NCBI GenBank assembly: GCA_039025875.1
Contig: JBCCNK010000001.1
Location: forward strand, 9,147 to 73,146
Origin: Pseudomonadota bacterium
Lineage (GTDB): Bacteria; Pseudomonadota; Gammaproteobacteria; Pseudomonadales; Halieaceae
DNA: 64,000 nt
Direction: 5' to 3'
Below the pieces are notes generated by a model, which had not been told where the DNA came from, searched no databases, and saw nothing but the letters and a program-made list of their open reading frames with translations. The position numbers and the translations under genes are program-made. Of this stretch, positions 1 through 16,587 are shown in pieces. Position 1 is the first letter of the stretch. Each line of letters opens with the position of its first letter.

Positions 1-2827
1 GACGCCGCTTGAGCGGGCGGTGCTCGCGAGAAACCTCTGGTAAAGCGAACGACTCACCGAGCATCCTGTCAGCGATCCAGCAGCCAGATTCGCTGCCGAC
101 AATAGCCTGCGCATCGGAGAACGCCTGTGTTAAGCAGCGCGTAGCTGCGATAAAGTCGAAGCCAGAACTTTTGCTGACATATCCCTCCGGAGATCCGCGG
201 AGCTCCGCGTAAACGACCCCTTCTTGGACGAAATCAACCAACACATGTTGCGCATAAAGATGAAGTAGTAGCGGGTGGCGAAGGTGTTCCGCCCCGGTCA
301 AGGCGCACCCCTCCAGGTAGCGAGTGAGACTGCCTTTCGCGCTCCGTCCTGTTGCCACTTCGTCCGCGAGAACCTTAAACGTTCCACGGATCTCCGGTAG
401 TGGTCCATCTATTTTGCTGAGACGCCAGTCCCGCCTCTCAAATGCCGATGCGGACCAGTTGCCCTCCGCGTACAAAGATCTAGTTAGCGACTCCCAAGCG
501 TCCCGATCTGTAAGGATCTCTCGATTTACGATGTCGGTGCCGTTAATCGTGATCTTTGCTTCTTTGCATAGCAGAGCACGGGATAACACATAGATTCTCA
601 ACAGCTGGTCGGGCCCAATAGTTGGCTCGGCACCTCGAATGCCGGCCGTGATCAGGTCAAACTTTGATTTGCTAGCAAGGGCTTCTACCAAGTGGCCGGA
701 TGAGAGGTACTCGGGTATACCCAACAAATGCCGGAGCTTTCCGCGGGTTTCAGAGCTGAAAGGCTCATTTCCTCCATGCATCCGTTTTTCGACCTCTTCC
801 ACAAGGTTATCCGCTGCTCTGTGCCACCACTGTGCGTCGTTCTTCTCGCTGACTTTCAGTTCAAACCAATCGAAAGCTATCTCGTCGCCTTCAAATCGTT
901 TCACCCATTCCTCGACGAGGCTGCTATTTTCAACGATGAATGCTTTCCCCGATGGGGTTGGTTCGGCAAGTCCGATCACGGATGCTGCGACCATGAACTC
1001 GGCCTTCATGCTGGTTCCAACGTGTAGGTGTAGTTCCGCCTTGGGAATCGCAGCGAGTAGCTCGCGGAAACAATGGTTAGAGGTTTCCAGCGGGTCGGTG
1101 GCAGCACCGTGCTCCTGATCAAAGGTCGTGGAATCAATTCTGACTTTAGGCACGCGAGCGGATTTGAGGAGTCCAATGGTGCCAGGTGGTAGCCTGTAGA
1201 GTCCGTGGAAGTTACGACGCCATCTTGTGCTCAGTCGGTCACGTTGGTCGATGACCCTAGAAAGCACGCCGGGGATCGAGAGTGGCCTACTCTTCTCGAC
1301 GTAAGCTTGAGCGCCCGCGCGGTAAGCGTCTAGCACGCGATCAGGATCGCCATCCCTGCTGAGGGCGATTATTGCTGGTAGGCTTGAGTCATCGTCTCCG
1401 CCCGACCACGCCCGGTCACGTAAATACCTAGTTAGGCCTCGGATGACCGCTGGGCCTTCCAATACTTCCTGTCCGTTTGAGGGCAGGTACTGATCGACAA
1501 GGACTACGTCGTGACCTAGCACTTGTCTACGAAGGTCTTCGAGTGTTTCTTCTTCCTCTTGCGAAAGAGACTGAAAAGAGGAGGATTGGTATTTTGAAAG
1601 CAACGGCATGGCTCTTAGCAGCAACTTGGGGTCCAGCGCCGTTGGTGCACTCTGGAGCAGCTTTGGTTGCAATTTACCTAAGCTTGAAATGACGGGGTCG
1701 GGTTTGTCATCAATTAGCAGCATAGTTGCTTGCGGCGCGGTGCTAAGCAGGCTGTCGGATAGGTCACGCAACGCTACCAATAGGCGACGCGATTGATATG
1801 CCAAGTTGGCGTCAACAGCAGTGTTCTTAATCGAGTGGGGACTGATGGCAGCGAGTGTATGTATTGCGTGCGTGACTCGTGCCGGGTCTTCGTGCCCAAA
1901 CCAGCCCGCAAGCCTATTTGCCGCCACGGTCCACTTTGCCTCCAACGTGTCGCCTAGCGCCGCCAGCTTCTGTTCCGTAAAGGGGTTCGTATCGCTCGTT
2001 TGGAGGCTTAGCAGTTCCGCGGCTTCGACGCGTGTTAGAACCCGGGATGCCTTTTTGTTCTCAAGAGACTTGATGAACGCGGATATACAAGCCTCAGGAT
2101 ATTGATACCAGTTCTCTCCGAACGGAGCCAACAGGCGCCCTTTGCTCCAGATCCACTGAGACGGCGCCGGCGTAGCAATGAGGTCGACCGGGTGTATTAT
2201 CAACTCGACGGGCGTCGCATCCTCTTCAGGCGACATCGTTTCGAGTAGGGGTGTCGCGTATTCGGGCTCGCCTTCACCTAGATCCGCGATGATCTTCCAT
2301 CGCACTCTATGGGAGATAGATACTATTCGAGATCTTAGCTCTGCTGCTCTGCGGTGCAATTCCTGGGCGCACTCGCCATGCACACGCGATAGTTCGCTAA
2401 TAGCTTCGTCAAAGGTTTCCGGCCTGCCGACGGACGTTCGAGCCTTCTTCCAAATACTGCTGATGTTAAAGGCCAGCCCCCCACTGTAGGGTGCCCATGC
2501 AACGTTGTCGGGAATGCCTTCTTTTTTGGCAAAGAAGGAAAACGCCACGTTGGACGCAACGCCCTGCCCACCTACATGAAACAAGACCTTAACGTCGTGA
2601 CTCTCGGAAAGGCTACTGATCCAACTCCAATCAGCTGCTGAGTCAGCACCGTCATCACGTCGGACGGCAATAATTGCGTTCGTGTCAAAGTTAGGAGAAT
2701 CCGTAAAATCGAAGGGTCGTTGGGTAGTTCGCGTGATCGCTAGTAGATCACAGTCTGTATCAATGTGAATATCGTCCAAAATATTGGTTTTTGGGATAAT
2801 GAGTATAATGAGTCTTCGTTCAGCCAC
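1..2827 (-). CDS. Response-regulator receiver (REC) domain fused to an adenosine/AMP deaminase-family domain; partial, runs off the left edge (>942 aa)
   Basis: Not in the ORF track. My manual translation from GTG at 2827 has no stop down to base 2. REC motifs: MLLIDDKP (~1723-1700), DVVLVDQYLP (Asp ~1495), PAIIALS, AYRAGAQAYVEK (~1325-1292). Deaminase motifs: PKAELHLH (1045-1022), GSLTRYLEG, GVVYAELRGSP (220-188). The start overlaps the stop of the upstream kinase by 8 bp. Confidence 0.85.
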   Translation of the reverse strand, partial: MAERRLIILIIPKTNILDDIHIDTDCDLLAITRTTQRPFDFTDSPNFDTNAIIAVRRDDGADSAADWSWISSLSESHDVKVLFHVGGQGVASNVAFSFFAKKEGIPDNVAWAPYSGGLAFNISSIWKKARTSVGRPETFDEAISELSRVHGECAQELHRRAAELRSRIVSISHRVRWKIIADLGEGEPEYATPLLETMSPEEDATPVELIIHPVDLIATPAPSQWIWSKGRLLAPFGENWYQYPEACISAFIKSLENKKASRVLTRVEAAELLSLQTSDTNPFTEQKLAALGDTLEAKWTVAANRLAGWFGHEDPARVTHAIHTLAAISPHSIKNTAVDANLAYQSRRLLVALRDLSDSLLSTAPQATMLLIDDKPDPVISSLGKLQPKLLQSAPTALDPKLLLRAMPLLSKYQSSSFQSLSQEEEETLEDLRRQVLGHDVVLVDQYLPSNGQEVLEGPAVIRGLTRYLRDRAWSGGDDDSSLPAIIALSRDGDPDRVLDAYRAGAQAYVEKSRPLSIPGVLSRVIDQRDRLSTRWRRNFHGLYRLPPGTIGLLKSARVPKVRIDSTTFDQEHGAATDPLETSNHCFRELLAAIPKAELHLHVGTSMKAEFMVAASVIGLAEPTPSGKAFIVENSSLVEEWVKRFEGDEIAFDWFELKVSEKNDAQWWHRAADNLVEEVEKRMHGGNEPFSSETRGKLRHLLGIPEYLSSGHLVEALASKSKFDLITAGIRGAEPTIGPDQLLRIYVLSRALLCKEAKITINGTDIVNREILTDRDAWESLTRSLYAEGNWSASAFERRDWRLSKIDGPLPEIRGTFKVLADEVATGRSAKGSLTRYLEGCALTGAEHLRHPLLLHLYAQHVLVDFVQEGVVYAELRGSPEGYVSKSSGFDFIAATRCLTQAFSDAQAIVGSESGCWIADRMLGESFALPEVSREHRPLKRR

Positions 2828-5800
2828 CGGCGCAATCCACCCCAGTCGGAAATGGTGCTAAGCCCTTTGCGGGCAAAGATAGCAGCGCTTGCGCCAAGAC
2901 TGCCTTGTTTGCTGGCGGCTCTTTAGCGCTGACTGTGCTCATATTGAGCACGGAAAATGGAATGAAGGGGTAGATTTGCCCGCCCTGACGAGTGTAGCTT
3001 GAGCTTTCCTTTAGCCCTCCGCCACCTGACGTGCGGACATGCATTCGCGCGTTGGGAAAAAAATCTGCCAGCTCTTGGAACGACGCCCCTAGCGACTCGT
3101 GAATGACTACTGCGTCCAAGTCAATGGAGCAGTCTCGTTGGTTTGTTTGATTGGTGAAGTGATGATCATCCACCAGAGCTCGCTCTCCAAGCTTAAAGAA
3201 TGGAAATATCCCTGACAGGTGGTATCTGCGGAGCGTGTACTCGTCTGAAATGGATTGCGCAATACGTTCATCTGCAATGCCTATCCTCATTGCGAAAGAT
3301 TCAATCATTGAAAGCAAAAGGAAGGCCTGACTATCCTGATCGCGCGGCGGTACAAGTACCGACCGAAGAAACGATCTATCATCTATGCAAGCGTACCTAA
3401 CAAATTTCCCCTCTGGTAAGGAATCCCACGTGCTCTTTCTCGAATGATGCTCAAGGCAAATCAGGCCCTCGTGCGCGCCCAAGCTCACTTCCAATTCAAA
3501 GTTTGGATTTCCGTTTTTGTGGAAAATTCTGACCTCAATAAAGCCTTGGGTGCTCTCAGGTAGATCGAAGTCAGGCGCGATGTCGTCTTCTAGAACCAGT
3601 ATTAGCTTCCATCTTTCAATGGGCAGCCATGCACGCATCCAGGACAGGTAGTCATCGATATCAAACACACCGCTTCTCTGCCTACTGCAAAGCGACCCTG
3701 CGCGAAAAAAACGGAGATTTAGGTCCTCGCCTTCCCAAAGTGTTGTACTTGCGTCGCCAGATGCTATTGCAAAAGTCGCCATGCCTTGATCTCGGTTCTT
3801 TTCCCCCTCGCTAGGGAAAACGCGCAATAGTCGGGGCGCGTGCAGTTCTAAAGAGTAAACGACGTACTCGGGTGGGACAAAATCTGGTCTGCCTGGCAGG
3901 GCCTCGTGTGCCGCTCGCAATCCGTCTTGATTGCCGCTTAGAAATCTCGCGCAGTACCGCATTTCCCAAAGCCCATGGCCACCATGAATCCGCTCGCCAG
4001 TAGGCTTGATTGGTCCCGTTTTGAGCTTTGCCTTGATGTCGGATACCTGTTCCTCAGTGGCGTCGCTCCGGTCTGTAGTCATAGCGAGATCGTAAGAGTT
4101 GGTGTTGTCACCTTTGGTTAAGGTTATGAATACAGTGAGCTCCTTGTCGTCCTTGCTAGTATGTACTGCTGCATTACGGAGGATATTCTCGAGGATGATG
4201 GCTAGTGCATGCGATCCTAGTGCTCCGCCTGGAAACGCGATCAAGACATCATGTGCAACACGCGTCTTGTCGCTTCGAAAGTTGCCTTTCCCTTCGTCGT
4301 CCCATGAAAAAGTGATCGTCTCAGACCTGATGTCGTCTTCGTGGAGCTTGCATACAAACCGAATCTTGCTCGCACGGAAACCCCGGTCGCACGTTAGCAA
4401 GTCTATTAGGACTGCCTGCTCAAGGAACGGAACGAGGAAATCCGCGATGAGGAACAACGGCTGTGGAGGGGTCGGAACGTCACTGAGCGCTTGTGCGATG
4501 AAGTCTAGTCGGGACTGCAAGTACGACATCAACTGCCTAAGGTTGTCGTCTGGCGCGCCGCCAACTTCCTCGAGAGCCCTGGGTAGTCTTGGGTGCGTGA
4601 GTACGTGGCTGCCAATATTGTGCGAGAGATTTCGAGCCATGACTGTGGCCATTACCTCACGCTCGCGCAGCTTCATCAGCTGCTTGGATATAGGAGCGTA
4701 GAAGTTTGCGTCTACGAGCGGGGAGGATAAGTCGCCTAACAGAGACGATATTTCGGCAGGGCTGTATTCAGCTTTGGCCCAGCTATCTGGTAATTGATGT
4801 TCGATGGAGTCGAAGGGTCGCGTCGCGCAGAGTGCAAATCCTACAGCATGACGAGCTGCTCTATTCTTCCGCACGGGTTGCGAAGGGGATTGCCAGATCA
4901 GCGAGACAAAGTAGGTCTTTGGCGATCGGTCGACCGCATTCCACACGTAGAACGGAAGGATTGGGAATGGGGCATTCCGTTCAATCCATAGCAGGGTTTC
5001 GTCCCGCGTAAAGCCCGCGCAATATTTCTCCAGAAATGTTCTCGCAGGGTTGCGCAGGGCCTGCTCCCAAGACTCCGGACTATCGCGTTGTAGGATGCCA
5101 GATTCGTTTACAGGAAGGTTTAACTTCCGAAATTCCGAAGCGATTACGGCGCCAGACTTGGGTAAGTGTATCGCGTTTAGAGCCTCGATCCAGCTTGACT
5201 CGTGTATGCTCTGAAACTGATGAGGTACTGGTTCCTTGACAAAATTCCACCCGATAATGCCAGCGCTATTTTCATGCTGTTTTGAGAGCCAGACATCACT
5301 CACACTTTTGCCCGACTGCGCCCAATGCAGCTCTACTTTGCAAGCCCGAAGCTCAAGCGAGGCCGAAGTCGAAGTTTCTGTGGCTTGTAGCATGAGCCGC
5401 CACAGGTAGCACCAGAAAAAGATTTCGCCGATCCTGCAAGCCTTCCACGGCCGTGGTTCGGTATCGAGCCAGGCAATGTGGTCTGGCAGGTATTCGCTGT
5501 TCTCATCCTGCTCTTCGAGCTGACTTTCCCGAACGTGGACGAATAGTGTGTGAAGCCACGCAGCTGCCTGAGCCTTGCTCTCTCTAGCTACGCCCTCTAC
5601 TAGGTAAGGGACCAAGTAGCTTCTGTGTGCGTCCGGGTCCCCAGAAAAGAAGTTATACCGGTCCGAAGGAATGTCTTCAAAGAGGAAGCCGGCGCTCGCG
5701 AGCCCTAGGTTTTCGAAGTAGGCGGACGCATCCTCGTTGTGCAAGAGTTTATCGTAATGCTCTCGGATCTCGCTGGGTTCAAGAAATACTGTTGTTGGCT

Positions 5801-5879
5801 TTCCGCTTTTTTCTCTTGGTCCCCACAAGAAGTCTGTGAACCAGTCGGGCATCTCAGCTCTGAGCCCTTCCGATGTCAT
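2820..5879 (-). CDS. Divergent soluble histidine kinase-like protein (GHKL/HATPase_c) with uncharacterised N-terminal ~400 aa and probable degenerate C-terminal receiver-like region
   Basis: H-box-like MARNLSHNIGSHVL; N-box ILENILRNAAVH; G2-like GGHGLWEM; C-terminal RIGIADER. No obvious transmembrane helices. Confidence 0.75.
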   Translation of the reverse strand: MTSEGLRAEMPDWFTDFLWGPREKSGKPTTVFLEPSEIREHYDKLLHNEDASAYFENLGLASAGFLFEDIPSDRYNFFSGDPDAHRSYLVPYLVEGVARESKAQAAAWLHTLFVHVRESQLEEQDENSEYLPDHIAWLDTEPRPWKACRIGEIFFWCYLWRLMLQATETSTSASLELRACKVELHWAQSGKSVSDVWLSKQHENSAGIIGWNFVKEPVPHQFQSIHESSWIEALNAIHLPKSGAVIASEFRKLNLPVNESGILQRDSPESWEQALRNPARTFLEKYCAGFTRDETLLWIERNAPFPILPFYVWNAVDRSPKTYFVSLIWQSPSQPVRKNRAARHAVGFALCATRPFDSIEHQLPDSWAKAEYSPAEISSLLGDLSSPLVDANFYAPISKQLMKLREREVMATVMARNLSHNIGSHVLTHPRLPRALEEVGGAPDDNLRQLMSYLQSRLDFIAQALSDVPTPPQPLFLIADFLVPFLEQAVLIDLLTCDRGFRASKIRFVCKLHEDDIRSETITFSWDDEGKGNFRSDKTRVAHDVLIAFPGGALGSHALAIILENILRNAAVHTSKDDKELTVFITLTKGDNTNSYDLAMTTDRSDATEEQVSDIKAKLKTGPIKPTGERIHGGHGLWEMRYCARFLSGNQDGLRAAHEALPGRPDFVPPEYVVYSLELHAPRLLRVFPSEGEKNRDQGMATFAIASGDASTTLWEGEDLNLRFFRAGSLCSRQRSGVFDIDDYLSWMRAWLPIERWKLILVLEDDIAPDFDLPESTQGFIEVRIFHKNGNPNFELEVSLGAHEGLICLEHHSRKSTWDSLPEGKFVRYACIDDRSFLRSVLVPPRDQDSQAFLLLSMIESFAMRIGIADERIAQSISDEYTLRRYHLSGIFPFFKLGERALVDDHHFTNQTNQRDCSIDLDAVVIHESLGASFQELADFFPNARMHVRTSGGGGLKESSSYTRQGGQIYPFIPFSVLNMSTVSAKEPPANKAVLAQALLSLPAKGLAPFPTGVDCAGG

Positions 5880-6748
5880 CGACGGGCCCAGAGGATCGCC
5901 GTTTGGTACATGCGGTAGGGGCAGGCCACTTCGGAGAATCCGATGCGTCTAATTGTGTCTGCCTCGCCCTCGAAATCTACGCTCGTGTTTCCGACAGAGG
6001 ATGCCCACGCTGGCGGCTCAATTGGCAGGGGAAGATTCTGCTCGCTAACGTGGGCTATCCATTCAGCACCGAGTTCCTCCGCGGCAACGCCGGCTGAAGA
6101 GATCGCTGCTGCGTCGGTTGCTGCAAGTTTCTCGAAGGACTCCCTAATCCATTCCTCGGTTACCGCTTGGGCCATGCTGTTGAGGCTCTTCGCTTGGAAC
6201 CCCTGTATGTCAAGGTTTAGGAAGACGCCGTGCGGGCGGAGGGAGACTAAAATCTTCTCATAAAGTTTGCGCTTAAGTTTGAGTCCGTGGTGGTGAAGCG
6301 CGAAGGCGCTCACAGCGATGTCGAGGACTGTTTCTTCCCAGGGCGAGCCAGCCATAATCTCGTGCAGGTCGAACCCGTCGCTTAGGGCGTCAGCAGCGAC
6401 TAGGTGGCATCGCTTGGCTAGAGATGGGTCTTCTTGAAGCTTGCGTTCAAGCCCCCTCAGCATCGAGTCGCTGCGGTCTACTGCGATGATGCGAGCGCGC
6501 GGAAGCTTATAAAGAAGGCGCATTGCTTCCGCGCCGGTGCCGCACCCTATGTCCACTATCAAGGCGGAATCTTGGCCGTCTTGCCTTGCATGCCGATATA
6601 CCAAGTCGCACAAGCTGTTGTGGGCCAGGCCATAGTCCGGCATCGTCAGGTGCGTGGTTTGGTCATATAGGGTGGGCGACTGTTCGGCATAAAATAGCCG
6701 GAGCCGTCGGCTATCATTGCGGGCCGTCGTCTCGGATGTCACCGTCAT
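5876..6748 (-). CDS. Class I SAM-dependent methyltransferase
   Basis: Motif I IVDIGCGTG, IIAVDRSDSML, AVSAFALHH, LRPHGVFLNLD. 4-bp start/stop overlaps on both sides. Confidence 0.9.
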   Translation of the reverse strand: MTVTSETTARNDSRRLRLFYAEQSPTLYDQTTHLTMPDYGLAHNSLCDLVYRHARQDGQDSALIVDIGCGTGAEAMRLLYKLPRARIIAVDRSDSMLRGLERKLQEDPSLAKRCHLVAADALSDGFDLHEIMAGSPWEETVLDIAVSAFALHHHGLKLKRKLYEKILVSLRPHGVFLNLDIQGFQAKSLNSMAQAVTEEWIRESFEKLAATDAAAISSAGVAAEELGAEWIAHVSEQNLPLPIEPPAWASSVGNTSVDFEGEADTIRRIGFSEVACPYRMYQTAILWARR

Positions 6749-7497
6749 GTTGAAGTTCCTCTTGTGTGAATGCTCCCGGTGGAAGCCAGGAAACTGGCAA
6801 AGCGCGTGGCTCGGGGGGTGATGAAGTTGTCTTTTTCACCACGTTCAACGACGCGGCCCTCGTCGAGAAAGAGAAAGGTGTCCTTCTCGTCGAGATCTAA
6901 CAGCGTTCTCGCGAACTCAATGTTGTGGGTCACGAGAAGCATTCCAATCGATCGCTGCCGCAATTCGAAAAGATAGCCAAGAAGTCGGTTGGCTTGCTCG
7001 ACATCAAGTGCAGAGGTGATCTCGTCCAGCAGGAGGAACGAAGGCTGCAAGAGAACAGCCCGAGCAAGCGCAGCCCGTTGCCGTTGGCCGAGGCTGACCT
7101 GATTAGGGTGCCTGTCGAGGAATTCTGACATGTTGAATAGCGTGACAACCTCGTCAAGTAGTGCATCGTCACATCCTCGTTTCCGGAGGGGGAGCGTGAT
7201 GTTCTCTCTCAGCGTTAAATGTGGCCACAGGAATAGCTGCTGGAAGACAACGGTAATCCTCGGCCACGGAGGTTCGACGCCCCTGTGCGGTGAGTCAAAG
7301 TCATAAAGTGTCTCGTCCACCTGTATTCGACCGGACGAAGGTGGCTCCAGCATTGAAAGTGCCCTGACAAGCGTGGTTTTGCCGCTCCCGCTGGGGCCGA
7401 GCAGCACGGTGATGAAGCCCGGGCGCACTTCGACGTCGACGTCGTGTAGAACGCGGCGAGGCCCGAATGACTGTGAGAGCTTGCTACCCACTAACAA
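6745..7497 (-). CDS. Polar amino-acid ABC transporter ATP-binding subunit
   Basis: Walker A GPSGSGKT; VFQQLFLWPHLT; signature variant SLGQRQR; Walker B LLLDEITSALD; H-loop VTH. Confidence 0.92.
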   Translation of the reverse strand: MLVGSKLSQSFGPRRVLHDVDVEVRPGFITVLLGPSGSGKTTLVRALSMLEPPSSGRIQVDETLYDFDSPHRGVEPPWPRITVVFQQLFLWPHLTLRENITLPLRKRGCDDALLDEVVTLFNMSEFLDRHPNQVSLGQRQRAALARAVLLQPSFLLLDEITSALDVEQANRLLGYLFELRQRSIGMLLVTHNIEFARTLLDLDEKDTFLFLDEGRVVERGEKDNFITPRATRFASFLASTGSIHTRGTST

Positions 7498-7510
7498 CCT
7501 AAGAGTCCCC

Positions 7511-8173
7511 CTATCGTTCCGAAATATCTCGTGTGAAGCGCCATCTTAGCCATGATGCTAGCCCGTTCATGGGTATGCATATGGCTAAGAAGAACAGCCC
7601 CAGCGCAGTGTAGATCTCGATGGGCTGGTGGATTGAAGCGTTTATGCGCTGCGACACCCGGAAAAGTTCCTCAACCGAGATCAGGCTCGCGAAGAGCGTC
7701 ATTTGCAACATGGTGACTTGGAGGTTTAACGTCGGTGGGATTGCCTGCCTGGCCACCAGCGGTAACTGTACACGGCGGAGCGTTTGGTATTGCGAGAGGC
7801 CACATACCCTGGCGGCATCAAGGTACTGTTCTGGAAAATCGTCAAGCGCGGATCGAACAATCTGCGAGACGCCGAAAATGTTGAGTGTCGAGAGAATTGT
7901 CGCCGCGCTCAGGAACGGTGAAGCGACGACCCCTAGAGCGATTTGGAGCGGATAGTGCACCCAGTACAAGAACACAAGGAATGGAATGCCTCCAATCACA
8001 AAGGCGATCGACCGAACTATCCAGCCAATCCGGGGCCAGATGTGAGCGATTGCGCCTAACAAGGTGCCGAGGCCAATGCCGACGACCCAGGTGATTAGGG
8101 ATAGCTCGATAGTTACGCCGAGGCCCTTGAGAAAGGCCGGGCGGTACTCGGTAAGGATCTCCAGTATCGTCAA
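7511..8173 (-). CDS. Polar amino-acid ABC transporter permease (HisM/GlnP-like)
   Basis: FLKGLGVTIELS, GIPFLV, EAA-loop-like QYLDAARVCGLS, SLISVEEL; several hydrophobic helices. Confidence 0.9.
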   Translation of the reverse strand: MTILEILTEYRPAFLKGLGVTIELSLITWVVGIGLGTLLGAIAHIWPRIGWIVRSIAFVIGGIPFLVFLYWVHYPLQIALGVVASPFLSAATILSTLNIFGVSQIVRSALDDFPEQYLDAARVCGLSQYQTLRRVQLPLVARQAIPPTLNLQVTMLQMTLFASLISVEELFRVSQRINASIHQPIEIYTALGLFFLAICIPMNGLASWLRWRFTRDISER

Positions 8174-9090
8174 GGCGAAGTTTCGGCCACTGGTTGATTG
8201 ATCGTGTAGGGCCTTGCTACTCGAGGAAAAAGGTTTGGCCCGGTCTCATACTTTGCGAGGATGCGATCGATCGCGCCTGAAAAAAGGAGCTCCCGCATCG
8301 CCGCGTCGAGGAACAGCTTTAGGTCGATGTCGCCCCGGCGCACGACTAGCGAGTTGCCAAACACTCGAACTGGCTCGTCCGGTTTGAGCTGCTTGAGCGT
8401 TCCCGGGTTTGTTTGAAGGAACTCGAAGACTGTACCCGGCTCGGCAAAAGTGACGTCCGCCTTATTTGCGATGATATTCAGCAGGTTTTGGCTAAATGGA
8501 GTCCCCTGTGACAGGGATGCACGTGCTGCCTTGGGGTAGTCTGTCCTCGCTACGATATCTTCGAGAGCACCATCCTTTGTTGCTATGCGCACGGAAGGAT
8601 CATTTAGCTCTTCGAGAGAGTCCCATCTTTCCTCACTTGCGCGTACCCAAGCCGTGATAACGCTATAAAACACTGGTATCGTGAAGTACGCGACTTTTGC
8701 GCGTACGCTACTCGGCCAAAGTCCGCCGCAAAAAACGTCATAACGGTTCGCATCGAGGCCTATGAAAATATTCTCGTACTCAACTTCTTCAACCCAGGCT
8801 ATTTCCAGCTCGGCGCGCCGACCGATTTCTTCCATGATGTCGTAGAAGATGCCAGAGAGCTCGCCAGTGTTTGGGTCCTTGCGGATCAATGGTGAGTAGA
8901 GAAGGTAACTGCAACGGAGTTCACGAGCCAACACGATGTTGTCTAAGGCGCTTGATGGTTGGGCTTCGCTACTCGGATCCCGTTGGTTGCACCCTGCTGA
9001 AGAGAGAAGCAATGCAACGACGGCGAGAATCATTTGCCAATCCATTGTTCTCGTCGTAGCAGTGCTAGTTTCGGCTGGGTAACGGCTCAT
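8170..9090 (-). CDS. Amino-acid ABC transporter substrate-binding lipoprotein (SBP_bac_3-like)
   Basis: Lipobox-like LLLSSAGC; GELSGIFYDI, GLDANRYD, YFTIP, SGAIDRILAKY. GAGGA RBS upstream of ATG 9090. Confidence 0.88.
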   Translation of the reverse strand: MSRYPAETSTATTRTMDWQMILAVVALLLSSAGCNQRDPSSEAQPSSALDNIVLARELRCSYLLYSPLIRKDPNTGELSGIFYDIMEEIGRRAELEIAWVEEVEYENIFIGLDANRYDVFCGGLWPSSVRAKVAYFTIPVFYSVITAWVRASEERWDSLEELNDPSVRIATKDGALEDIVARTDYPKAARASLSQGTPFSQNLLNIIANKADVTFAEPGTVFEFLQTNPGTLKQLKPDEPVRVFGNSLVVRRGDIDLKLFLDAAMRELLFSGAIDRILAKYETGPNLFPRVARPYTINQPVAETSP

Positions 9091-9639
9091 CGATAATCCT
9101 CAGTGCTGCTCTGGGCGAGAGAGATTGCCTGTATGTTGCAATGTGCGCGACTTCAACCGTGCGCCACGTACTTGCGTCGCTACTATCGCTCAGCTTTGTT
9201 GTGCAGCTGGCGATAAGGCTCACAGCTAGGCAGTATTTTCCCTAGTCCCCTGAGCCCCGGTAACCGCCAGGCAAAGGGAGCCGGCGATGATGCAGACTCG
9301 AAAATCCGGCTAACCCGACTAGCACGCAGGTCTGCAAATCCCGCAGAGCAACCACGATGAGAAGCTAGCCTCGAATGGGTTCTGCGGGACACAAAGCAAC
9401 GCGATCTACGCCTAATCGGCACGCCAATCTACCGTTTGTCTACGCTGCATCTGGGGCCGTCGATCGCCATTCGCTTCGCGCTCAGCGGGTCACGCAAGGG
9501 CCAAGTGTGAACCAGCGGACAGTATCGCTTCCGCTCGAGCGCGCTGCAATGCGAAGTAAGGCCAAGCCTTCACGCCTAGAACGCGACACGTCATACGGAT
9601 TGAGCGGTATCAACGAAGGTGGTGGGTACATTGGCGTCT

Positions 9640-10357
9640 CACTTCGATTTCTGGCGGGGTCTTGTGGCGCGTGTCGCTAAGGCATCCCGGTGAAGTCGGC
9701 ATCGACGCGAGCCAAGATATGCTCGCTATCGCTCAGGAGGTTGTGTCTGGTTACGATCCGATGCCTAGACTTCGCGCTTGCAGATTTCCTCCTCTGCCGT
9801 TTGAAGGCGCAACCTTCGACGGGGTCTACGCGGCGCAGGTACTACACCACCTTGAAGACTCGGGAGCGGTTAGCGGGCGTCTTGGCTACCCACGGACCCT
9901 CGAGTACGTTAGGGAAGTCGCTAGTGTACTCAAGCCCGGCGGGCTCATTGCCCTCAATACTTGCACGCGAGATCAGCTCAAAGCCTATTGGCACCTAACC
10001 CAATAGGTCGGCTACCAAAGTAGCAAGCGTCACGAAATCGTTGAACGATACGCGCCCATCGATGTGCTGATAGATTTGCTCGGTAACGCAGGCCTTGAAA
10101 GAATTCGCAGAATCGTTGGGCTGGACGACTGCTGCTATCGCGACCGGAGTGTCTACCTAGATCCTGAGTCAGTTCTGTCGCCTGATGGGCGGAACAATTC
10201 TGCATGGGATCTGCTGAACTGCGCTGAGACAGAGCTCGTGCTGGAGACTATCCGCGAAAAAGTTCGGGACGGCTCGATTTACGGACACATACAAAGCTGC
10301 GATGCCCAGCACAAAGAGTTGGGGTCAACGATCTGGGTGCTCGGTGAAGAGGCCTAA
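9640..10357 (+). pseudogene. Degraded class I SAM methyltransferase
   Basis: GIDASQDML, LPFEGATFDGV, QVLHHL, VLKPGG. ORFs 9662-10006 and 10064-10357 share a frame and are separated by an in-frame TAG at 10004-10006. Motif I and the start appear corrupted, so the 5' limit is approximate. Confidence 0.7.
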
Positions 10358-11487
10358 CGACATTATCGTTACCGTCCGGGCACCACACCTTGATGGAATG
10401 GCTCGGGTTATGCGGCAGGAGACTGTTGAGCTTCTCGAACATCACGAGGGTCTCGGGCGGCGTCGCCTGAGAATCGCTCTGGTAGCTCGCGGTGCTGATA
10501 ATGTCGTAGGCGCGCTCAGCATCCATAAAGGCTTCGATCCGCTCTCGGGAGACGTGTAGGCGTGTGATGTCCAGGCACGTCAGCAACATCACGCGTTCTG
10601 GTGGTCATTAACTCCAGCGGGGTGACGCTGTGGATGGGGATTCTGGCTGTTATTACCTCAAGGTCATCCTCGTGCCAGTCCCGCTGGCGAGCCTTGCGTT
10701 CAACCCAAAGTTCGTCCGCGGAAATACAAAGCTGGCTGCGCGCTCCGGTGAATCGTTCGTAGTGATAGAGGTACTGAACGATCCACGTGTGTACCAGATC
10801 GTAGAGGTCGTAAGCCAGATAGTTCAGGCCGTTGCTGACCACAAGAGCATGCAGATTCGCAATCATCTGGTGGGACTCAGGGCGCATGCGGATAACCACG
10901 GTGGGGCCATCGCTGCGTTTAGAGAATCGTTTCCCCTCGGTGGATAGTATTAGGACGTATGATTCGGCAATTCGGTGCAGTTTGACGATCAGGTTCCCGA
11001 TGCTCTGCATCGCCGATGGACTGATCGGGTTGCCGCCCGCACGCTCCGCCAACCAATCCCGATAGTGGCTTTGCACGATCAGCACCAGTTCCGCCGCCAG
11101 CTCTTTGTCGACGATCCGGGCGCCCGTTTTGAGTACCCGGACCGCATCGGCGTCATGGACGCCAGCGCTGGAGAACACGATGGCTTTCTAAAAAATCTCC
11201 AGCTGAAGCGGCGATAGCCGCACATAACCTTCCCGTCGCTCCTCGGTCTTCCGACGCCGCTTCAGCCTTTCGGCTACTAACTCGCTTTAGGCGCGGAGTA
11301 CGGGCTTTTGAATCCGTTTGCCCGCCCGTAGCTTTGCCCAGTAACCGCGGGGCGGGGTTGGGACCTAAAGCAGTTTGCACCGCTTGCTGATGGCAACGTC
11401 CGATACGCCCAGCTCCTCGGCAAGCTGCCTCACCGGTTGTCCCCACAACAGGGGAAACAGCTCCTCTCGCGTGAAGTTTTCAAGCAT
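10248..11487 (-). pseudogene. Pseudogene of an HTH-like hypothetical protein of the type found in mobile regions
   Basis: From ATG 11487 (GGAG RBS): MLENFTREELFPLLWGQPVRQLAEELGVSDVAISKRCKLL*VPTPPRGYWAKLRAGK. In-frame stops at 11367, 11289 and 11190; the frame continues into ORF 10516-11178. A probable frameshift leads into 10248-10592, so the 3' limit is uncertain. Confidence 0.65.
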
Positions 11488-11848
11488 ATCTGGCTGCTCC
11501 TTCGATCGTGTATGCGACTCGACGTCGGCTGGCGTCGTACTCTCCTGATGCCCAGTCTGATGCGCAGTGCTATTTTCGATGCACGGTGGTCGTTAACGAC
11601 GTCAAGCAGGAAACAGGATCAGGGTAGATCGGATTTCTTGCGGCCGTGTCGCTTTGTCGTGCGTAGCGTTGCCTGGTGTTGCATGGAGAGTCCGCCATCA
11701 CCAGAAATTCCGGGTACGCCGATCTGGCCACGGAACCTTCAGTGTGAAATCGTCCGGGCCTCGCAATGGTCCAGGGCACCACCTTAGGAACACAATCAGG
11801 AGTCACCACCCAGCCAACCCCACTTTTTTACCCTTAACCAGGAGATGC

Positions 11849-13360
11849 ATGAGCATGGATGCGAACTGCACATCGGGAATGGATTCCCACGACAATACGG
11901 TCAGCGCACTGGTCAGTTTGGCGATCAGCCGTATCCGACCTTTTGAATACTCTCCCCGGCGGCGCCCGCACGAGGCTCGCCTGCGACTCGTGCAATCGAT
12001 TCGTCAGCATGGACTGGACCATGCGTTGGTTGTCACGCAGCCACCGGGTTCGAGGAACTATGTCCTCGCCGCCGGCGGCACAACGCGACTTTCCGTGCTC
12101 CGTGAGCTCGCCGCAGAAGCCGGCGGCGCCCGCTTCGCCAAGGTTCCGTGCGTCGTCATCCGCTGGCCCGGTGAGACCGAGCTGATACTCGCGCATCTTC
12201 GGGAGAACGATCTTCGCAGCGAATTGGTGTTCATCGAGCAGGCGCGTGCCGTCGCCCAGTGCAAGCGTTTGCTGGAGCTAGACACGGGGAGGTCGTTCTC
12301 CGATGATGAACTCGCGGCGCAGTTGCACCAGCGCGGCTACGGATTCAGCGGAGCGATCATTGACCAGATGCTCTATGCGACTGGGCGATTACTCGAGGTC
12401 ATACCCGCGGCGCTCGACAGCGGACTGCGCCGCGAAGCGGTGCAGCAGATTCGGTACCTGGACGTGACCGCAACACACCTCTGGACGGCGCACGGTCTCG
12501 ATCCCACGCAACCCTACGATGACACGTTCCTCGCCTTGTGCCGCCGCTACGACGGCCCCGATTGGTCTTTTGAGGACCTCGAAGAGGCCGTCGCCGTGGA
12601 AATCGCCGAGGCAGCCGATGTAAGTATCCAGGCTGTGCGCCTGGCGCTGCGTGCACCAGTGATCGACAACCCAGGTGCTTTAGATTCTGAAGTGCCAAGC
12701 GCTGTTTCCGCCTCTTCAGATTTTGAAGCGCAGACGTGCCCTTCTCAGAACGCTTCGCGCTCGATCAGCCGCGCCTACTCCCGCGGCTTCAACCGGCCCG
12801 TCTCGGGAGAGCGCACGGATCCCGAGGTGCGCGAGCCCGGTGCTGGCGACTATCTGACGAGACCGCCGGCGCCGGCTTTACAACACCGAGACAACGCGCC
12901 CCTGAAATCGGCGCGAGCGCGGTGCTGGACGCTAGCGCTGCGCCTTGCGACCCGCTTTGGCCTCCAGGATCTCGTCGTATCAACGCCCGGCGCTGGCCTT
13001 GGCTACCTGCTGATAGATTACCCAGACAGCGGCTTTCTATCGACGCTCTCGGGGCAGAAGGCCAGGCAGGTCCAGCACATCTGGGACCATCTGGCCACCT
13101 GCTGCGATCTCCCGCGCGCGCCGAGGGAGCATCTTGCGCGCAGGCTGACACCAGGGTCGGCGCTGTACAGCGATCTGCTGTCCGTTGACGGGAGAGCAGG
13201 GCACGTCGGATCGCAAATCAATGACTATCGGCCGCTGCGCTGCCCGTGGGGAGACCTTGAAGAGGCTGCGTGGCGTGACTACGTGGCCCTGATGGATGCG
13301 CGGCAAGCCGCGCATGGCTTCGCAGAGATTCATGGCGTGTGCCTCTGGGGTGCGCAATGA
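11849..13360 (+). CDS. ParB-family protein, PFGI-1 class ICE (BisD-like)
   Basis: IRPFEYSPRR, SIRQHGLD, LAAGGTTRL, LAHLRENDLRSELVFIE. GGAG RBS before ATG 11849, in frame with the listed ORF 11654-13360. Confidence 0.85.
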   Translation: MSMDANCTSGMDSHDNTVSALVSLAISRIRPFEYSPRRRPHEARLRLVQSIRQHGLDHALVVTQPPGSRNYVLAAGGTTRLSVLRELAAEAGGARFAKVPCVVIRWPGETELILAHLRENDLRSELVFIEQARAVAQCKRLLELDTGRSFSDDELAAQLHQRGYGFSGAIIDQMLYATGRLLEVIPAALDSGLRREAVQQIRYLDVTATHLWTAHGLDPTQPYDDTFLALCRRYDGPDWSFEDLEEAVAVEIAEAADVSIQAVRLALRAPVIDNPGALDSEVPSAVSASSDFEAQTCPSQNASRSISRAYSRGFNRPVSGERTDPEVREPGAGDYLTRPPAPALQHRDNAPLKSARARCWTLALRLATRFGLQDLVVSTPGAGLGYLLIDYPDSGFLSTLSGQKARQVQHIWDHLATCCDLPRAPREHLARRLTPGSALYSDLLSVDGRAGHVGSQINDYRPLRCPWGDLEEAAWRDYVALMDARQAAHGFAEIHGVCLWGAQ

Positions 13361-13998
13361 ACGGGTCGAAGGAGGCGGATCTGATGATCGCCGTGATGCT
13401 TTATGCGGTACGGTGTCTCGGCGAGGGCGACCAGCAATCCCTGCGCGAAATGGGGTTGGGCCCCCGCGAGTTGGATGCGCTGAGCGACCTCGAGATGGCC
13501 GACCTGTATCGATTTGGTGCGCTGCGCGCGCATTGCGTGACCATTACTATCGACTGTGATGTCTTCTGGCCTCTGCTGTCGCGGCTGCAGGATGCACGCC
13601 AGAGCGAGGAGCTGCAGCGTGACCTGGTCAAGCGAGACGCCCCCCTGGACATGATGCGGCGCCTATTCGGTATGGGGTCACGAGAGTACACGCGTCTGCG
13701 ACGGGCGTTAGCGGTGGAGCCCGCCGTCGGCCGGCCGCCGGAGCCGGACGAGGAGACGGCCCACCGGTTATGGCGAGCGATCGAAACCGCGATGGCCGGT
13801 CGTGACGGCTATGAACTGCTGCCCATCCATTATCTGCAGATCTGCGAGACGACCGGGGCATCGCTGCGCAGTGTCTGGCGCTGCGCGAAACGCTGGGCCG
13901 ACTACACGCCGCCCGTGGACCGGCGCAGCGCAGCGGCGAAGGCATCGGGCTCCAAGTCGCCCGCGACATCGACAACGCCACCGGCCCCGTCAACCTGA
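13357..13998 (+). CDS. DUF2857-family ICE protein (BisC-like)
   Basis: CLGEGDQQSLREMG, APLDMMRRLFG, VGRPP, SLRSVW. ATGA overlap with the ParB-like gene. Confidence 0.8.
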   Translation: MNGSKEADLMIAVMLYAVRCLGEGDQQSLREMGLGPRELDALSDLEMADLYRFGALRAHCVTITIDCDVFWPLLSRLQDARQSEELQRDLVKRDAPLDMMRRLFGMGSREYTRLRRALAVEPAVGRPPEPDEETAHRLWRAIETAMAGRDGYELLPIHYLQICETTGASLRSVWRCAKRWADYTPPVDRRSAAAKASGSKSPATSTTPPAPST

Positions 13999-14004
13999 GG
14001 CGGT

Positions 14005-15231
14005 GTGTCCATCCCAACGGGGAGCTTTCAGGCGCCCCCACCGGAGATCCGCGCGCTCGATGCCTGGATACAGGCGATCATGGCCTTGCAAGGTGTCGAG
14101 GACGACGGCGCGGTCGGTGGCAGCCTGCTGATACTGGCGCCACACCTACACTCGATCCCGGCGGCGGTCATCCACGATGCCACGCTCAGTCCCGTCGATA
14201 GGCTGGCCTGGATGGTGATCTTCCAGGCCGCGGTCGAGGGTGGGGGTACGGCCGCCTTCCCCTCGTATCGATCGCTCACGACAACCGCTAACCTAGGCTC
14301 GAGTGCCACGGTTTCCCGTGCGCTGGCGTCCCTGCGCATCCTGCGCTGGATGACGGTCAGCAGGCGCAAGGCGGCGGGGGAGGGCACCGGGGGTCTCACC
14401 GTCTACACGCTCCATGGGCATGCGCTGACGGTGGCCGATACGCTGCTGCTGGATCCCGGGTACCTGGCTTACCTCGAAGGTGCCCGTACTCATCACCACG
14501 CTCGTGTCCGTGCGTTGGCAGGGACCGAATGGTCACGATCCCAAACCAAGAACACCGCCGCTACGGCGTTGGCGTCTGAACGCCGCCCCGCGGTGACAGT
14601 CTGCGGCCATGAGAGTGGTGCCTCGGGGTCAGCGACTTCAGCGACTGAAGCGCTTCAGAATTCAAAGCGTCGTAGTAGTAGTAATAAACAACTACGTAAA
14701 CAACCTAATCAAAAAAAACAAAAAAAACAAAAAAAGTACAACAACAACCAGAACCCCGCTCCGAACTCCGCTACGGAGCACGTCGCGCGCGAGGCGGTCG
14801 ACGACCAGGGCCTCGTGTTTCCAGCGCTATTGCCCTCGGAGTTGCACCGGGTGGCGCAGGGCTACCTCGCCAAATTGCCGGAAGACGCTCGCCAGGCGGT
14901 GCTTGATGAACTCGCCGGCCGACTGGTCAACGCGCAAGCTGGCGATTCGCCCGTGCGCGACCCGCTGCGGTATCTGCAAAGTCTCTGCGGTCGTGCGCGC
15001 CGCGGCGAATTCGTGCCGAACCTCGGTATTGCCGTGCGCGACCGCCGCGAGCGGACGTCCACGGTGTCACCGCGCGCCGAGGCCCCTGCAGGACTACCGG
15101 AGCGGCAAGAACCGGCTGACTGGGAAGCGGCACTGCGAGTCCTCGCGGAGATACGGGAGTCCCTCGGCCAGTCGTTTCGGGCGAGCACCGCTACGCCGCC
15201 GAGTGGCAACCGAAAGCCGCCCGATCGGTAG
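14005..15231 (+). CDS. STY4528-like HTH replication protein of ICEs
   Basis: IPAAVIHDATLSPVDRLAW, AFPSY, TVSRALASLRILRW, RQAVLDELAGR, VRDPLRYL; S/N/K-rich linker. Confidence 0.8.
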   Translation: MSIPTGSFQAPPPEIRALDAWIQAIMALQGVEDDGAVGGSLLILAPHLHSIPAAVIHDATLSPVDRLAWMVIFQAAVEGGGTAAFPSYRSLTTTANLGSSATVSRALASLRILRWMTVSRRKAAGEGTGGLTVYTLHGHALTVADTLLLDPGYLAYLEGARTHHHARVRALAGTEWSRSQTKNTAATALASERRPAVTVCGHESGASGSATSATEALQNSKRRSSSNKQLRKQPNQKKQKKQKKYNNNQNPAPNSATEHVAREAVDDQGLVFPALLPSELHRVAQGYLAKLPEDARQAVLDELAGRLVNAQAGDSPVRDPLRYLQSLCGRARRGEFVPNLGIAVRDRRERTSTVSPRAEAPAGLPERQEPADWEAALRVLAEIRESLGQSFRASTATPPSGNRKPPDR

Positions 15232-15333
15232 GTTTGCCAATAATCGGCGACAGGGTCGGGTGGGGTTTCTCCTCGTCGCTCCTGTCTCGATGTGGGTTCA
15301 TGGGCGCTGAGCCCCTAGCGCTGGATTGGATCC

Positions 15334-16218
15334 ATGGACTCGCAACCGTTCATCCCATCGAAAATGCCGCCGAGCACTTCATCGAATACGCCGTCGCCCG
15401 AAAGCCACAGCGCGGAATCGGCACCCGATCCCGCTGCGCCGGTCCCCGGCAAACTCCTCGGCACGGCGACGCTGACGCTGCAGACGCAGCAGGCGGCACG
15501 CCTGGTGCGGGGCCGCGCGAAAACGAGCGACAAGCCGGCAATCATCGGACTGCTCAGCTTCGCGGCGATGTGCCGGACGATCTGGCACGGAGTGCGGGCT
15601 GACGACCCCTACGCGGACTGGTGGCGCCTGAAGGTGGACGGTGCCATTCGCGAGGCCCGCGCGGTGCTCGATCGGGAGCGCCGGTCCCTGGATCCGCTGT
15701 TCGCACGCGACGGCGCGGTCGCTGTACAGCCGGCGCGATCGGAAAAGCCCGTGCGCATTGCCCTGAACTTTACCAATCCCGACGCCTTTCGTGCCGCCCA
15801 GGTCATCGGCCATTTCGACGGTCTGGCCTGCGGCCTACTTTCGCTGGCTCACGCGGGGACCCTCGGCCGCGACGAAGCCCGCCATCGCCTCGAGCGGAGC
15901 GGTCGCGCAGTCCGTCGGGTGCTGCAAAGTGCGGTCGGCTACCGTTACCTTGGTCTTGATCGGTCCGCGGTGCGGCAGGGCACGGCCTTGGCGGTGCAGG
16001 CCCGAGAGGTGATGGGCGACTGCCCCCAGTCGCTGCTCGACAAGGCGTACCGGCACCCTGTGCACAGACCGCCCCAACCCGGCGCAGCGACCGCCGGTAC
16101 TGAAAGCAACAGCGTCGATCCAGACGGAGCACAGTCGATCGATGAACTCGCCGGGCCAGTCGGAATTCCTCGCGTCCCCGATGCGGACTCCCACTGCGAG
16201 GACGACCATGAGCCGTGA
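15334..16218 (+). CDS. PFL_4669/DUF1845-family ICE protein (InrR-like)
   Basis: LTLQTQQAARLVRGR, KPAIIGL, DDPYADWW. Confidence 0.85.
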   Translation: MDSQPFIPSKMPPSTSSNTPSPESHSAESAPDPAAPVPGKLLGTATLTLQTQQAARLVRGRAKTSDKPAIIGLLSFAAMCRTIWHGVRADDPYADWWRLKVDGAIREARAVLDRERRSLDPLFARDGAVAVQPARSEKPVRIALNFTNPDAFRAAQVIGHFDGLACGLLSLAHAGTLGRDEARHRLERSGRAVRRVLQSAVGYRYLGLDRSAVRQGTALAVQAREVMGDCPQSLLDKAYRHPVHRPPQPGAATAGTESNSVDPDGAQSIDELAGPVGIPRVPDADSHCEDDHEP

Positions 16219-16565
16219 GCACCCCGATGTCGCAGCATATCCGGCGTCGCGTCACGCTCCGCCTCGATTCCGCCATTCAGACGGAACGCCGAATCCTCGA
16301 ACAACTCGACGCGCTACCCGGGCGCAGTGGGACCGACTGGCTACGGGCCCTGCTAACGCAGGGATACCTTGCCGAGGCGCAGGATCAATCATCCGACCGG
16401 CCGTTAGGCACGCAAACAGTGAAGCCAGGAGCCCCAGCTGTTACTCCCTCGGAAGCCACGCAGAACGCGCAAGTCGCTGCTTCGCAAGCGGAAGCATCCG
16501 CAACACTGTCGACGGCGTCGACCGCCGGAAAGCCGTTTGCCCGACTGCGGGAGCTCGTCGGCTGA
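16215..16565 (+). CDS. Probable ParR/StbB-like centromere-binding adaptor
   Basis: Small protein with a ribbon-helix-helix-like N-terminus (RRVTLRLD...DWLRALLTQG), a low-complexity linker and an amphipathic C-terminal helix; lies immediately upstream of ParM. Confidence 0.6.
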   Translation: MSTPMSQHIRRRVTLRLDSAIQTERRILEQLDALPGRSGTDWLRALLTQGYLAEAQDQSSDRPLGTQTVKPGAPAVTPSEATQNAQVAASQAEASATLSTASTAGKPFARLRELVG

Positions 16566-16587
16566 TGGCTCGGCGAGGGCTCCAGCG

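Follow-up and report, generated by a model that had tools for sequence, protein, structure and literature searches.

Bacterial systems that attack the cell's own adenine nucleotides provide the closest comparisons for the locus described here. Detocs consists of the sensor kinase DtcA, the stand-alone receiver DtcB and DtcC, a receiver joined to a PNP ATP nucleosidase; it sets a precedent for a kinase and a receiver-effector fusion acting as a defence system, and the effectors reported for it are nucleosidases, endonucleases and transmembrane proteins, with no deaminase among them (Rousset et al, 2023; bioRxiv 10.1101/2023.01.24.525353). Cad1 deaminates ATP to inosine triphosphate (ITP) through established catalytic residues, and the same source describes RADAR, in which the ATPase RdrA and the deaminase RdrB convert (d)ATP to (d)ITP in defence (PMC11645235). 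Here, we analyse a stretch of 64,000 nucleotides, hereafter the window, from a Pseudomonadota bacterium of the Halieaceae (assembly GCA_039025875.1, contig JBCCNK010000001.1; G000:C1:9147-73146 in our numbering). Its left end carries a mobile-island operon that encodes a receiver-deaminase fusion (P0003) and a histidine-kinase-like protein (P0002), and with a probability of roughly 0.58 we read this operon as a transporter-linked phosphorelay that switches on a nucleotide (ATP) deaminase. By analogy, it may be described as Detocs in logic and Cad1 in chemistry, and as a member of neither.

The operon comprises six tightly overlapping genes on the minus strand. It is therefore not the two-gene, Detocs-like unit proposed in a first-pass annotation of the window, as it also includes a methyltransferase and an ATP-binding cassette (ABC) importer dependent on a substrate-binding protein (SBP). 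The first gene (8170-9090) encodes a periplasmic substrate-binding lipoprotein (SBP_bac_3) with a signal peptide and the lipobox LLSSAGC, and overlaps by 4 bp the gene of an ABC transporter permease (7511-8173; BPD_transp_1 in Pfam, five predicted hydrophobic segments). A 13-bp gap separates the permease from the polar amino-acid-type ABC ATP-binding subunit (6745-7497; Pfam ABC_tran, 3.9e-30), whose best NCBIfam matches, ArtP, EhuA and GlnQ, all lie under cut-off. The ATPase gene overlaps by 4 bp that of a 290-residue class I S-adenosylmethionine (SAM)-dependent methyltransferase (5876-6748; Pfam Methyltransf_25/12/11), which in turn overlaps the start of the kinase gene by 4 bp (2820-5879; P0002, 1019 residues). 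The last gene, for the receiver-adenosine/ATP-deaminase fusion P0003 (1-2827), has the first 942 of its 1196 codons in the window: the open reading frame (ORF) 2-2827 is open at the left edge and continues for 763 bp to a stop codon at C1:8383, and the complete length of 1196 residues can be read on the contig. The minus-strand ORF of more than 942 residues seen in the first pass is thus real, and so is its 8-bp overlap with the kinase-like gene, read directly as the GTG start of P0003 overlapping the TGA stop of the kinase ORF (GGTGGCTGA). Altogether, four of the five junctions overlap by 4-8 bp. Scans for sigma-70 promoters, terminators and sigma-54 promoter patterns around the operon ends gave nothing above chance.

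Within P0003, residues 365-535 (1223-1735) form a complete receiver (REC) domain, as the first-pass annotation had recognised. It carries an acidic pair (D373/D374), the phospho-acceptor D445, S490, Y509 and K512; across 43 family sequences of ~30% identity, D374, D445, S490 and K512 never vary, and D373 and Y509 hardly do. A profile of residues 355-545 retrieves nothing but receiver proteins from the PDB (8svz at 8e-6, NarL, CheY). The AlphaFold model has a predicted local distance difference test (pLDDT) score above 90 over residues 365-535, and Foldseek matches this part to receiver domains with a probability of 1.0 and template modelling (TM) scores of 0.6-0.73. The acidic pair, the phospho-Asp, the Ser and Lys positions and the fold are all those of a receiver, with a long insert between beta1 and beta3 (an extended alpha1-alpha2 region); the Pfam Response_reg model has no match in P0003.

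The N-terminal region of the fusion (residues 1-355; 1763-2827) has no Pfam match, and its residues 1-260 are modelled with low confidence. An Atlas language-model comparison gave a weak similarity to REC-like OKR_DC_1_N folds (score 0.83). Because its words fell in this non-conserved N-terminus, a word-index search with the whole of P0003 matched only P0003 itself; the relatives discussed below were found with residues 360-1196. We also considered the 221-residue protein P0008 of locus L002 as a counterpart of the P0003 N-terminus and rejected it, since the likeness, over the first ~200 residues, is by eye only and not significant in BLASTP.

The C-terminal part of P0003 is an adenosine deaminase-family domain, recognised by Pfam A_deaminase (PF00962) at 9e-43 and containing the motifs PKAELHLH and GVVYAELRGSP that had led the first-pass annotation to the same assignment. 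The portion inside the window (residues 585-942; 2-1075) includes the HxH metal site H600/H602, an insert and the GVVYAELRGSP strand, and the sequence left of the window edge supplies VVGFDLSGPE, HAGE (H1032/E1035), RIGHG (H1056) and SRDNP (D1118/N1119). The leftward extension suggested earlier therefore recovered the anticipated HxxE and His motifs, as HAGE and RIGHG, in a gene that is not truncated; however, the expected DD pair reads D-N, as in Cad1. All 43 aligned members of the family share H600, H602, H1032, E1035, H1056, D1118 and N1119. P0003 accordingly has the HxH, HxxE, downstream His and Asp residues of the adenosine/AMP deaminase superfamily (PF00962), whose catalytic domain is a TIM-barrel amidohydrolase, and its invariant catalytic residues correspond to H243, H448, H472 and D533, which are needed in Cad1 (PMC11645235).

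By closeness and by a shared T-D-N motif, the domain appears to be of the Cad1 type and to stand apart from housekeeping deaminases. Its best PDB matches are the Cad1/CAAD entries 9c67 (2.5e-29), 8z3k and 9ebt, in which T-D-N is likewise present, and the canonical deaminase genes found separately elsewhere in this genome read D-D where P0003 reads D-N. The PADLOC model CARF_ADA matches P0003 at 3.7e-69 (232 bits), with the match limited to profile positions 224-602, the deaminase part, and the housekeeping model TIGR01430 scores 156 bits, below its own cut-off. In a maximum-likelihood tree (quick search, LG+G4, C-terminal half of the deaminase, 107 rows, midpoint root for drawing only), the REC-fused, CARF-fused and other long deaminases share one side of a branch with a Shimodaira-Hasegawa-like approximate likelihood ratio (SH-aLRT) support of 99, and 79 single-domain deaminases, including this genome's own, occupy the opposite side. 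Thirteen REC-fused rows form a clade with a support of 100; sampling was biased to the best matches of the query, so that the tree speaks for affinity, not ancestry.

The parallel with Cad1, which belongs to type III CRISPR systems, extends to the arrangement of the protein, as both carry a sensor domain fused N-terminally to an effector deaminase, which in Cad1 yields ITP. However, the sensor of P0003 is a phospho-receiver instead of a CARF domain that binds cyclic oligoadenylate, and P0003 is twice as long, with an extra N-terminal region and a family-specific insert of roughly 170-220 residues inside the deaminase domain. The locus has neither a CARF domain nor a type III CRISPR linkage, and no cas genes lie in the surrounding 20 kb. 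As in RADAR, a gene for a large ATPase-type partner stands beside that of a large deaminase, but the partner here has a histidine-kinase fold and not that of an AAA+/STAND ATPase. PADLOC gave no RdrA or RdrB match on P0002 or P0003 (E ≤ 0.1 or 0.01), and no RdrB structure is found among the PDB matches of P0003.

P0002 has no match in Pfam, NCBIfam or PADLOC, and was described in the first pass as a soluble kinase-like protein. This description holds, as the protein has no transmembrane segment and matches histidine kinases in its fold. The model is confident over residues 374-690 (3810-4760), where P0002 is predicted to combine DHp helices with a GHKL ATPase core of the Bergerat fold. This part contains an H box (RNLSHNIGSH, with H420 and H425), an N box (ILENILRNAA), D602 at the G1 position and a G2 box (GHGLWEM). 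The top 50 Foldseek matches are essentially all histidine kinases, together with two mitochondrial GHKL kinases of the pyruvate dehydrogenase kinase (PDK) type (E ~5e-7, probability 1.0), and VIA-align against 48,161 chains returns histidine kinases only, at Z 7-10.3 over a model range of ~404-684.

An exhaustive profile search shows that P0002 belongs to a large family, with 3048 representative clusters (50% identity) at E ≤ 1e-3 and 1219 at E ≤ 1e-30. Its consensus begins with RNxSHNIGSH and continues with ILENIxRNAA, a conserved Asp where the G1 box would be, and GxGxxEMK; H420/H425, E564, N569, D602 and G636 are conserved, and four of 35 aligned rows match Pfam HATPase_c weakly. One family alignment (A2), used for the model and for the search across the order, holds one non-homologous row, L006:14718-18305, which the motif statistics exclude. 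We discarded this protein as a member, since it belongs to a different family of ~1200 residues and its match to the A2 hidden Markov model (HMM) is circular. Conservation runs from the H box to the C-terminus, and the N-termini vary; in P0002, the variable region (residues 1-372; 4764-5879), which may be a sensor, has a pLDDT below 50.

The C-terminal end of every member of the kinase family is a conserved domain of ~285 residues (735-1019 in P0002; 2823-3677), with invariant W747, H812, E860, D870-E871-R872, H927, G952/G954 (TSGRG) and K992. A sequence-profile search of the PDB with this domain gave no meaningful match, Atlas offered a weak lead (score 0.80-0.84), and the output of the whole-model VIA-align search was filled by matches to the kinase core. 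No database recognises the domain. From its residue pattern and its predicted beta-alpha order, it is possibly REC-like, with a His at the phospho-Asp position at the end of a predicted strand. A predicted complex of two kinase cores (residues 374-700) with the REC domain scored 0.00, which we count neither way.

The P0002-P0003 pair resembles Detocs in combining a kinase with a receiver-enzyme fusion that would destroy the adenine nucleotide pool, with a modular output domain; related loci, moreover, contain a stand-alone receiver comparable to DtcB in five cases (L003, L007, L089, L168, L174). P0002 appears to belong to another family than DtcA: its members are invisible to Pfam and have an additional C-terminal domain, and P0002 lacks the TPR, HisKA and HATPase_c signatures described for that kinase, its TPR sensor included (bioRxiv 10.1101/2023.01.24.525353). 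A deaminase takes the place of the nucleosidase as effector, and the layout is not the three-gene one of Detocs, as the window operon has no stand-alone receiver and carries four further genes (SBP, permease, ATPase and methyltransferase). Relatives of the locus also add sigma-54 activators, and Detocs protects from phage, a role that is plausible for the window operon. In other respects, the locus recalls transporter-associated two-component systems (NtrBC-like, sensing amino acids or C4-dicarboxylates), with which it and its relatives share the DHp and GHKL core, receiver outputs, sigma-54 activators and linkage to SBP and ABC transporter genes. It differs from them in its cytoplasmic kinase without recognisable HisKA and HATPase_c signatures, in having a nucleotide enzyme instead of a transcription factor as one of the outputs, and in its mobile, sporadic occurrence.

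The earlier view that the pair matches no described system still stands. Apart from the Cad1 deaminase, no PADLOC model matches, a result that does not count against Detocs, as the set gave no Dtc-named match even for canonical receiver proteins and thus probably lacks Detocs models. A full-text literature search, with subscription journals mostly outside its coverage, found no paper describing the system, a receiver-deaminase fusion or the kinase motif SHNIGSH.

About 55 proteins of 1100-1420 residues share the REC-deaminase architecture at 32-41% identity. Scans of genome and metagenome contigs with the family alignment returned almost only single-domain deaminases, the true members being those of L008, L088 and L089 and a fragment in L090. 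We examined 13 REC-deaminase loci (the window's own, L002, L005-L008, L088, L089, L168-L171 and L174). An SBP gene is present in 11 of them, a sigma-54-type activator in nine and a methyltransferase in at least six. In seven (the window's own, L002, L005, L007, L089, L170 and L174), the gene directly upstream of the REC-deaminase encodes a member of the kinase family, and in L005 the gene order is identical to that of the window operon. The linkage anticipated in the first-pass annotation was therefore recovered in six independent and highly diverged loci (20-40% identity) among the 12 others, and not in the other half. There (L006, L008, L088, L168, L169 and L171), the kinase family was not found in searches with HMM filters off, with a motif regular expression and with hhalign; three conserved uncharacterised genes (~460-820, ~190-290 and ~170-190 residues) and a receiver-less sigma-54 activator instead precede the REC-deaminase gene.

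Conversely, of five kinase loci picked regardless of the deaminase, L002 and L174 contain its gene, and L003, L175 and L176 are without it. Every one of the five has an SBP gene, four an ABC transporter, which is also possible upstream in L174, where the contig starts at the SBP gene, and three an NtrC-type regulator. Because kinase loci occur with and without the deaminase and with other regulators, the deaminase would be one output among several of a broader relay that is linked to transporters.

Two further gene classes recur in these neighbourhoods. In three relatives (P0054, P0055 and P0056), a SAM methyltransferase is fused to the N-terminus of the REC-deaminase, which suggests that the separate methyltransferase of the window may act in the same pathway. 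A Ham1/RdgB-type ITP pyrophosphatase (ITPase) is encoded near or directly after the deaminase gene in 4 of the 13 loci (L002:14440-15003, L168:13776-14342, L089:12910-13500 and L088:13445-14041). The window operon has no such gene, and none was found in this genome, whose assembly is 58% complete. The linkage in relatives supports a triphosphate as the probable product.

Some neighbours of the related loci deserve separate mention. A divergent module, with a Tubulin_2 (FtsZ-like) protein, two large uncharacterised proteins (~940-1200 and ~650-730 residues) and a vWA protein, stands beside 5 of the 13 REC-deaminase loci (L006:14718-23741, L008:12814-21283, L088:16172-22369, L168:16235-23768 and L170:13620-22974); it also adjoins L175, a kinase locus without the deaminase. 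Another such kinase locus, L003, contains a dCTP-deaminase-like gene (DCD; L003:19274-19792) and an inosine-uridine nucleoside hydrolase gene (L003:364-1320), a hint that nucleotide-acting enzymes may be a recurrent theme of relays built on this kinase family.

The operon belongs to the cargo of an integrative conjugative element (ICE), at its edge, since ICE backbone genes flank it on the right (11654-17598): ParB, DUF2857, an AcaB regulator and a ParM-like actin. The ParB is of the PFGI-1 type (TIGR03764, 190 bits, above the NCBIfam cut-off). The G+C content is 0.51-0.57 over window positions 1-11000 versus ~0.64 beyond. A search of 300 other genomes of this order, 272 of them of high quality, gave no member of the kinase family, and related loci adjoin type IV secretion system (T4SS), integrase/KfrA, TraI and transposase genes. 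To the left of the window, the contig starts with a tyrosine integrase gene (L001:200-1435) and no tRNA. Next comes a gene for a class II lanthipeptide synthetase (DUF4135 and LANC_like, 940 residues; L001:2785-5968), with a small ORF in front of it that weakly matches a family of ribosomally synthesised peptides; these genes are further low-GC cargo of the island. On the other side, positions 18856-27384 hold a conflict operon that encodes an EAD1-trypsin protein, a TPR-containing STAND NTPase, another trypsin-like protease and a hydrolase of the GDSL type.

From the gene structure, folds, conserved residues, affinities and linkage described above, we infer the chemical steps, the substrate and the biological purpose of the relay as follows. 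The lipoprotein binding protein and the ABC importer would bring a small molecule into the cytoplasm or signal that transport is active. The soluble kinase, whose fold and motifs are those of its class, would sense this cue through its variable N-terminal region and autophosphorylate on H420 by means of its GHKL domain. The phosphoryl group would then pass to D445 of the P0003 receiver, a transfer suggested by the invariant acceptor residues and by the translational coupling of the genes. Once phosphorylated, the receiver would activate the fused Cad1-type deaminase, which would convert (d)ATP to (d)ITP and ammonia; homology of the deaminase and the ITP pyrophosphatase genes beside its relatives in four loci point to this reaction. 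The ATP pool would collapse with a gain of ITP or inosine monophosphate (IMP), and growth would stop, either as an abortive-infection-like defence or as a reversible shutdown, with the methyltransferase as a presumed conserved accessory. To judge from the linkage of an ITPase to the deaminase gene, the removal of ATP (by way of ITP to IMP), or an arrest that can be reversed, would be more important than poisoning by ITP.

Several observations weigh against this phosphorelay-gated ATP deaminase. The sequence leaves AMP, adenosine or a methylated adenine nucleotide as candidate substrates beside ATP. Pfam receiver and kinase models miss P0003 and P0002, both of which are far from characterised families, and the kinase is no obligate partner, as 6 of the 13 REC-deaminase loci have no detectable member of its family. 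Any ITP formed would be removed by an ITPase encoded in the same operon; this speaks against poisoning by ITP as the purpose but is still compatible with ATP depletion. Moreover, the constant SBP-dependent importers and the sigma-54/NtrC-type activators in relatives are typical of nutrient-responsive signalling rather than of known phage sensors. A role against phages is plausible by analogy and from the mobile-island, conflict-gene neighbourhood; within the model, we put an anti-phage or anti-mobile-element role at roughly even odds.

These importers and activators are also an argument for a metabolic alternative, a regulon for scavenging nutrients or nitrogen. In such a regulon, the importer would bring in a nitrogen-rich compound, the kinase, together with NtrC-type activators in relatives, would report its availability, and the REC-gated deaminase would free ammonia from adenine nucleotides or adenosine, or buffer the adenylate pool like an AMP deaminase. 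Importers of the amino-acid, branched-chain/urea and NMT1 types in 11 of the 13 loci and sigma-54 activators in nine fit this account, as do neighbouring genes for a nucleoside hydrolase, an isochorismatase-type hydrolase and an isocitrate/isopropylmalate dehydrogenase, and weak AMP_deaminase Pfam matches in some related long deaminases. We nevertheless regard it as unlikely: the genome already has ordinary deaminase genes, the P0003 domain clusters with the Cad1 effectors, apart from the housekeeping enzymes, and the ITPase linkage points to a triphosphate product. In addition, the locus is sporadic and mobile, absent from the 300 genomes of its order and neighboured by integrase, T4SS, TraI and transposase genes, and a phospho-gated enzyme of 1200 residues would be an odd design for scavenging.

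Kinase and fusion could also be neighbours without being partners, the receiver taking its phosphate from a different kinase or from acetyl phosphate, or acting as a phosphorylation-independent dimerisation module, and the kinase-like protein signalling only to the conserved domain at its own C-terminus or to different partners. The half of the REC-deaminase loci that have no member of the kinase family and the kinase loci that have no deaminase (L003, L175 and L176) would be explained in this way, but the 8-bp overlap of the two genes, their adjacency in six independent and diverged loci and the invariance of the REC acceptor residues make it improbable. Least credible of all is a detoxification or house-cleaning relay, in which imported adenine-nucleoside analogues or damaged or methylated adenine nucleotides would be detected and then neutralised by deaminase, methyltransferase and ITPase, an idea built on gene co-occurrence (Ham1-type pyrophosphatases for non-canonical NTPs in four deaminase loci, methyltransferases, some of them fused, in at least six, and the dCTP-deaminase-like and nucleoside hydrolase genes of L003) and opposed by importers of the amino-acid/branched-chain type instead of nucleoside (BMP-type) binding proteins, by the lack of any visible resistance-type gene logic and by the lack of identifiable residues known to be analogue-specific.

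Returning to the phosphorelay-gated ATP deaminase, two-component control of a nucleotide-depleting effector is already known, and the parts that could be new in kind are the kinase family and the coupling to a transporter. A wider reading, which we offer as speculation and consider rather doubtful as a whole, is that the kinase family (~3000 clusters) represents a new class of transporter-coupled phosphorelays. These would read a small molecule, external or imported, that might be a danger or kin signal, and drive interchangeable receiver-fused outputs, namely sigma-54 activators, stand-alone receivers and the Cad1-type ATP deaminase. The ICE-borne version in the window would then be an externally triggered ATP-to-ITP shutdown, serving immunity or dormancy, and the C-terminal His domain a new phosphorelay element.

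To our knowledge, ATP-to-ITP conversion as an immune output is known in two settings only, Cad1 and RADAR, where the trigger is an intracellular nucleotide signal or is not known. In the window operon, a Cad1-type enzyme appears to be connected with a phospho-receiver, a histidine kinase from a new family and an importer that has a periplasmic binding protein. The system is compact, with six genes, and yields clear predictions for single residues (H420, D445, H600/H602 and E1035). If the proposed relay is correct, Detocs-like logic would gain a second, independent origin, and a large family (~3000 clusters at 50% identity) that no domain database recognises would receive its first function. 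Sabotage of the nucleotide pool could then fall under two-component control, possibly in response to an external cue.

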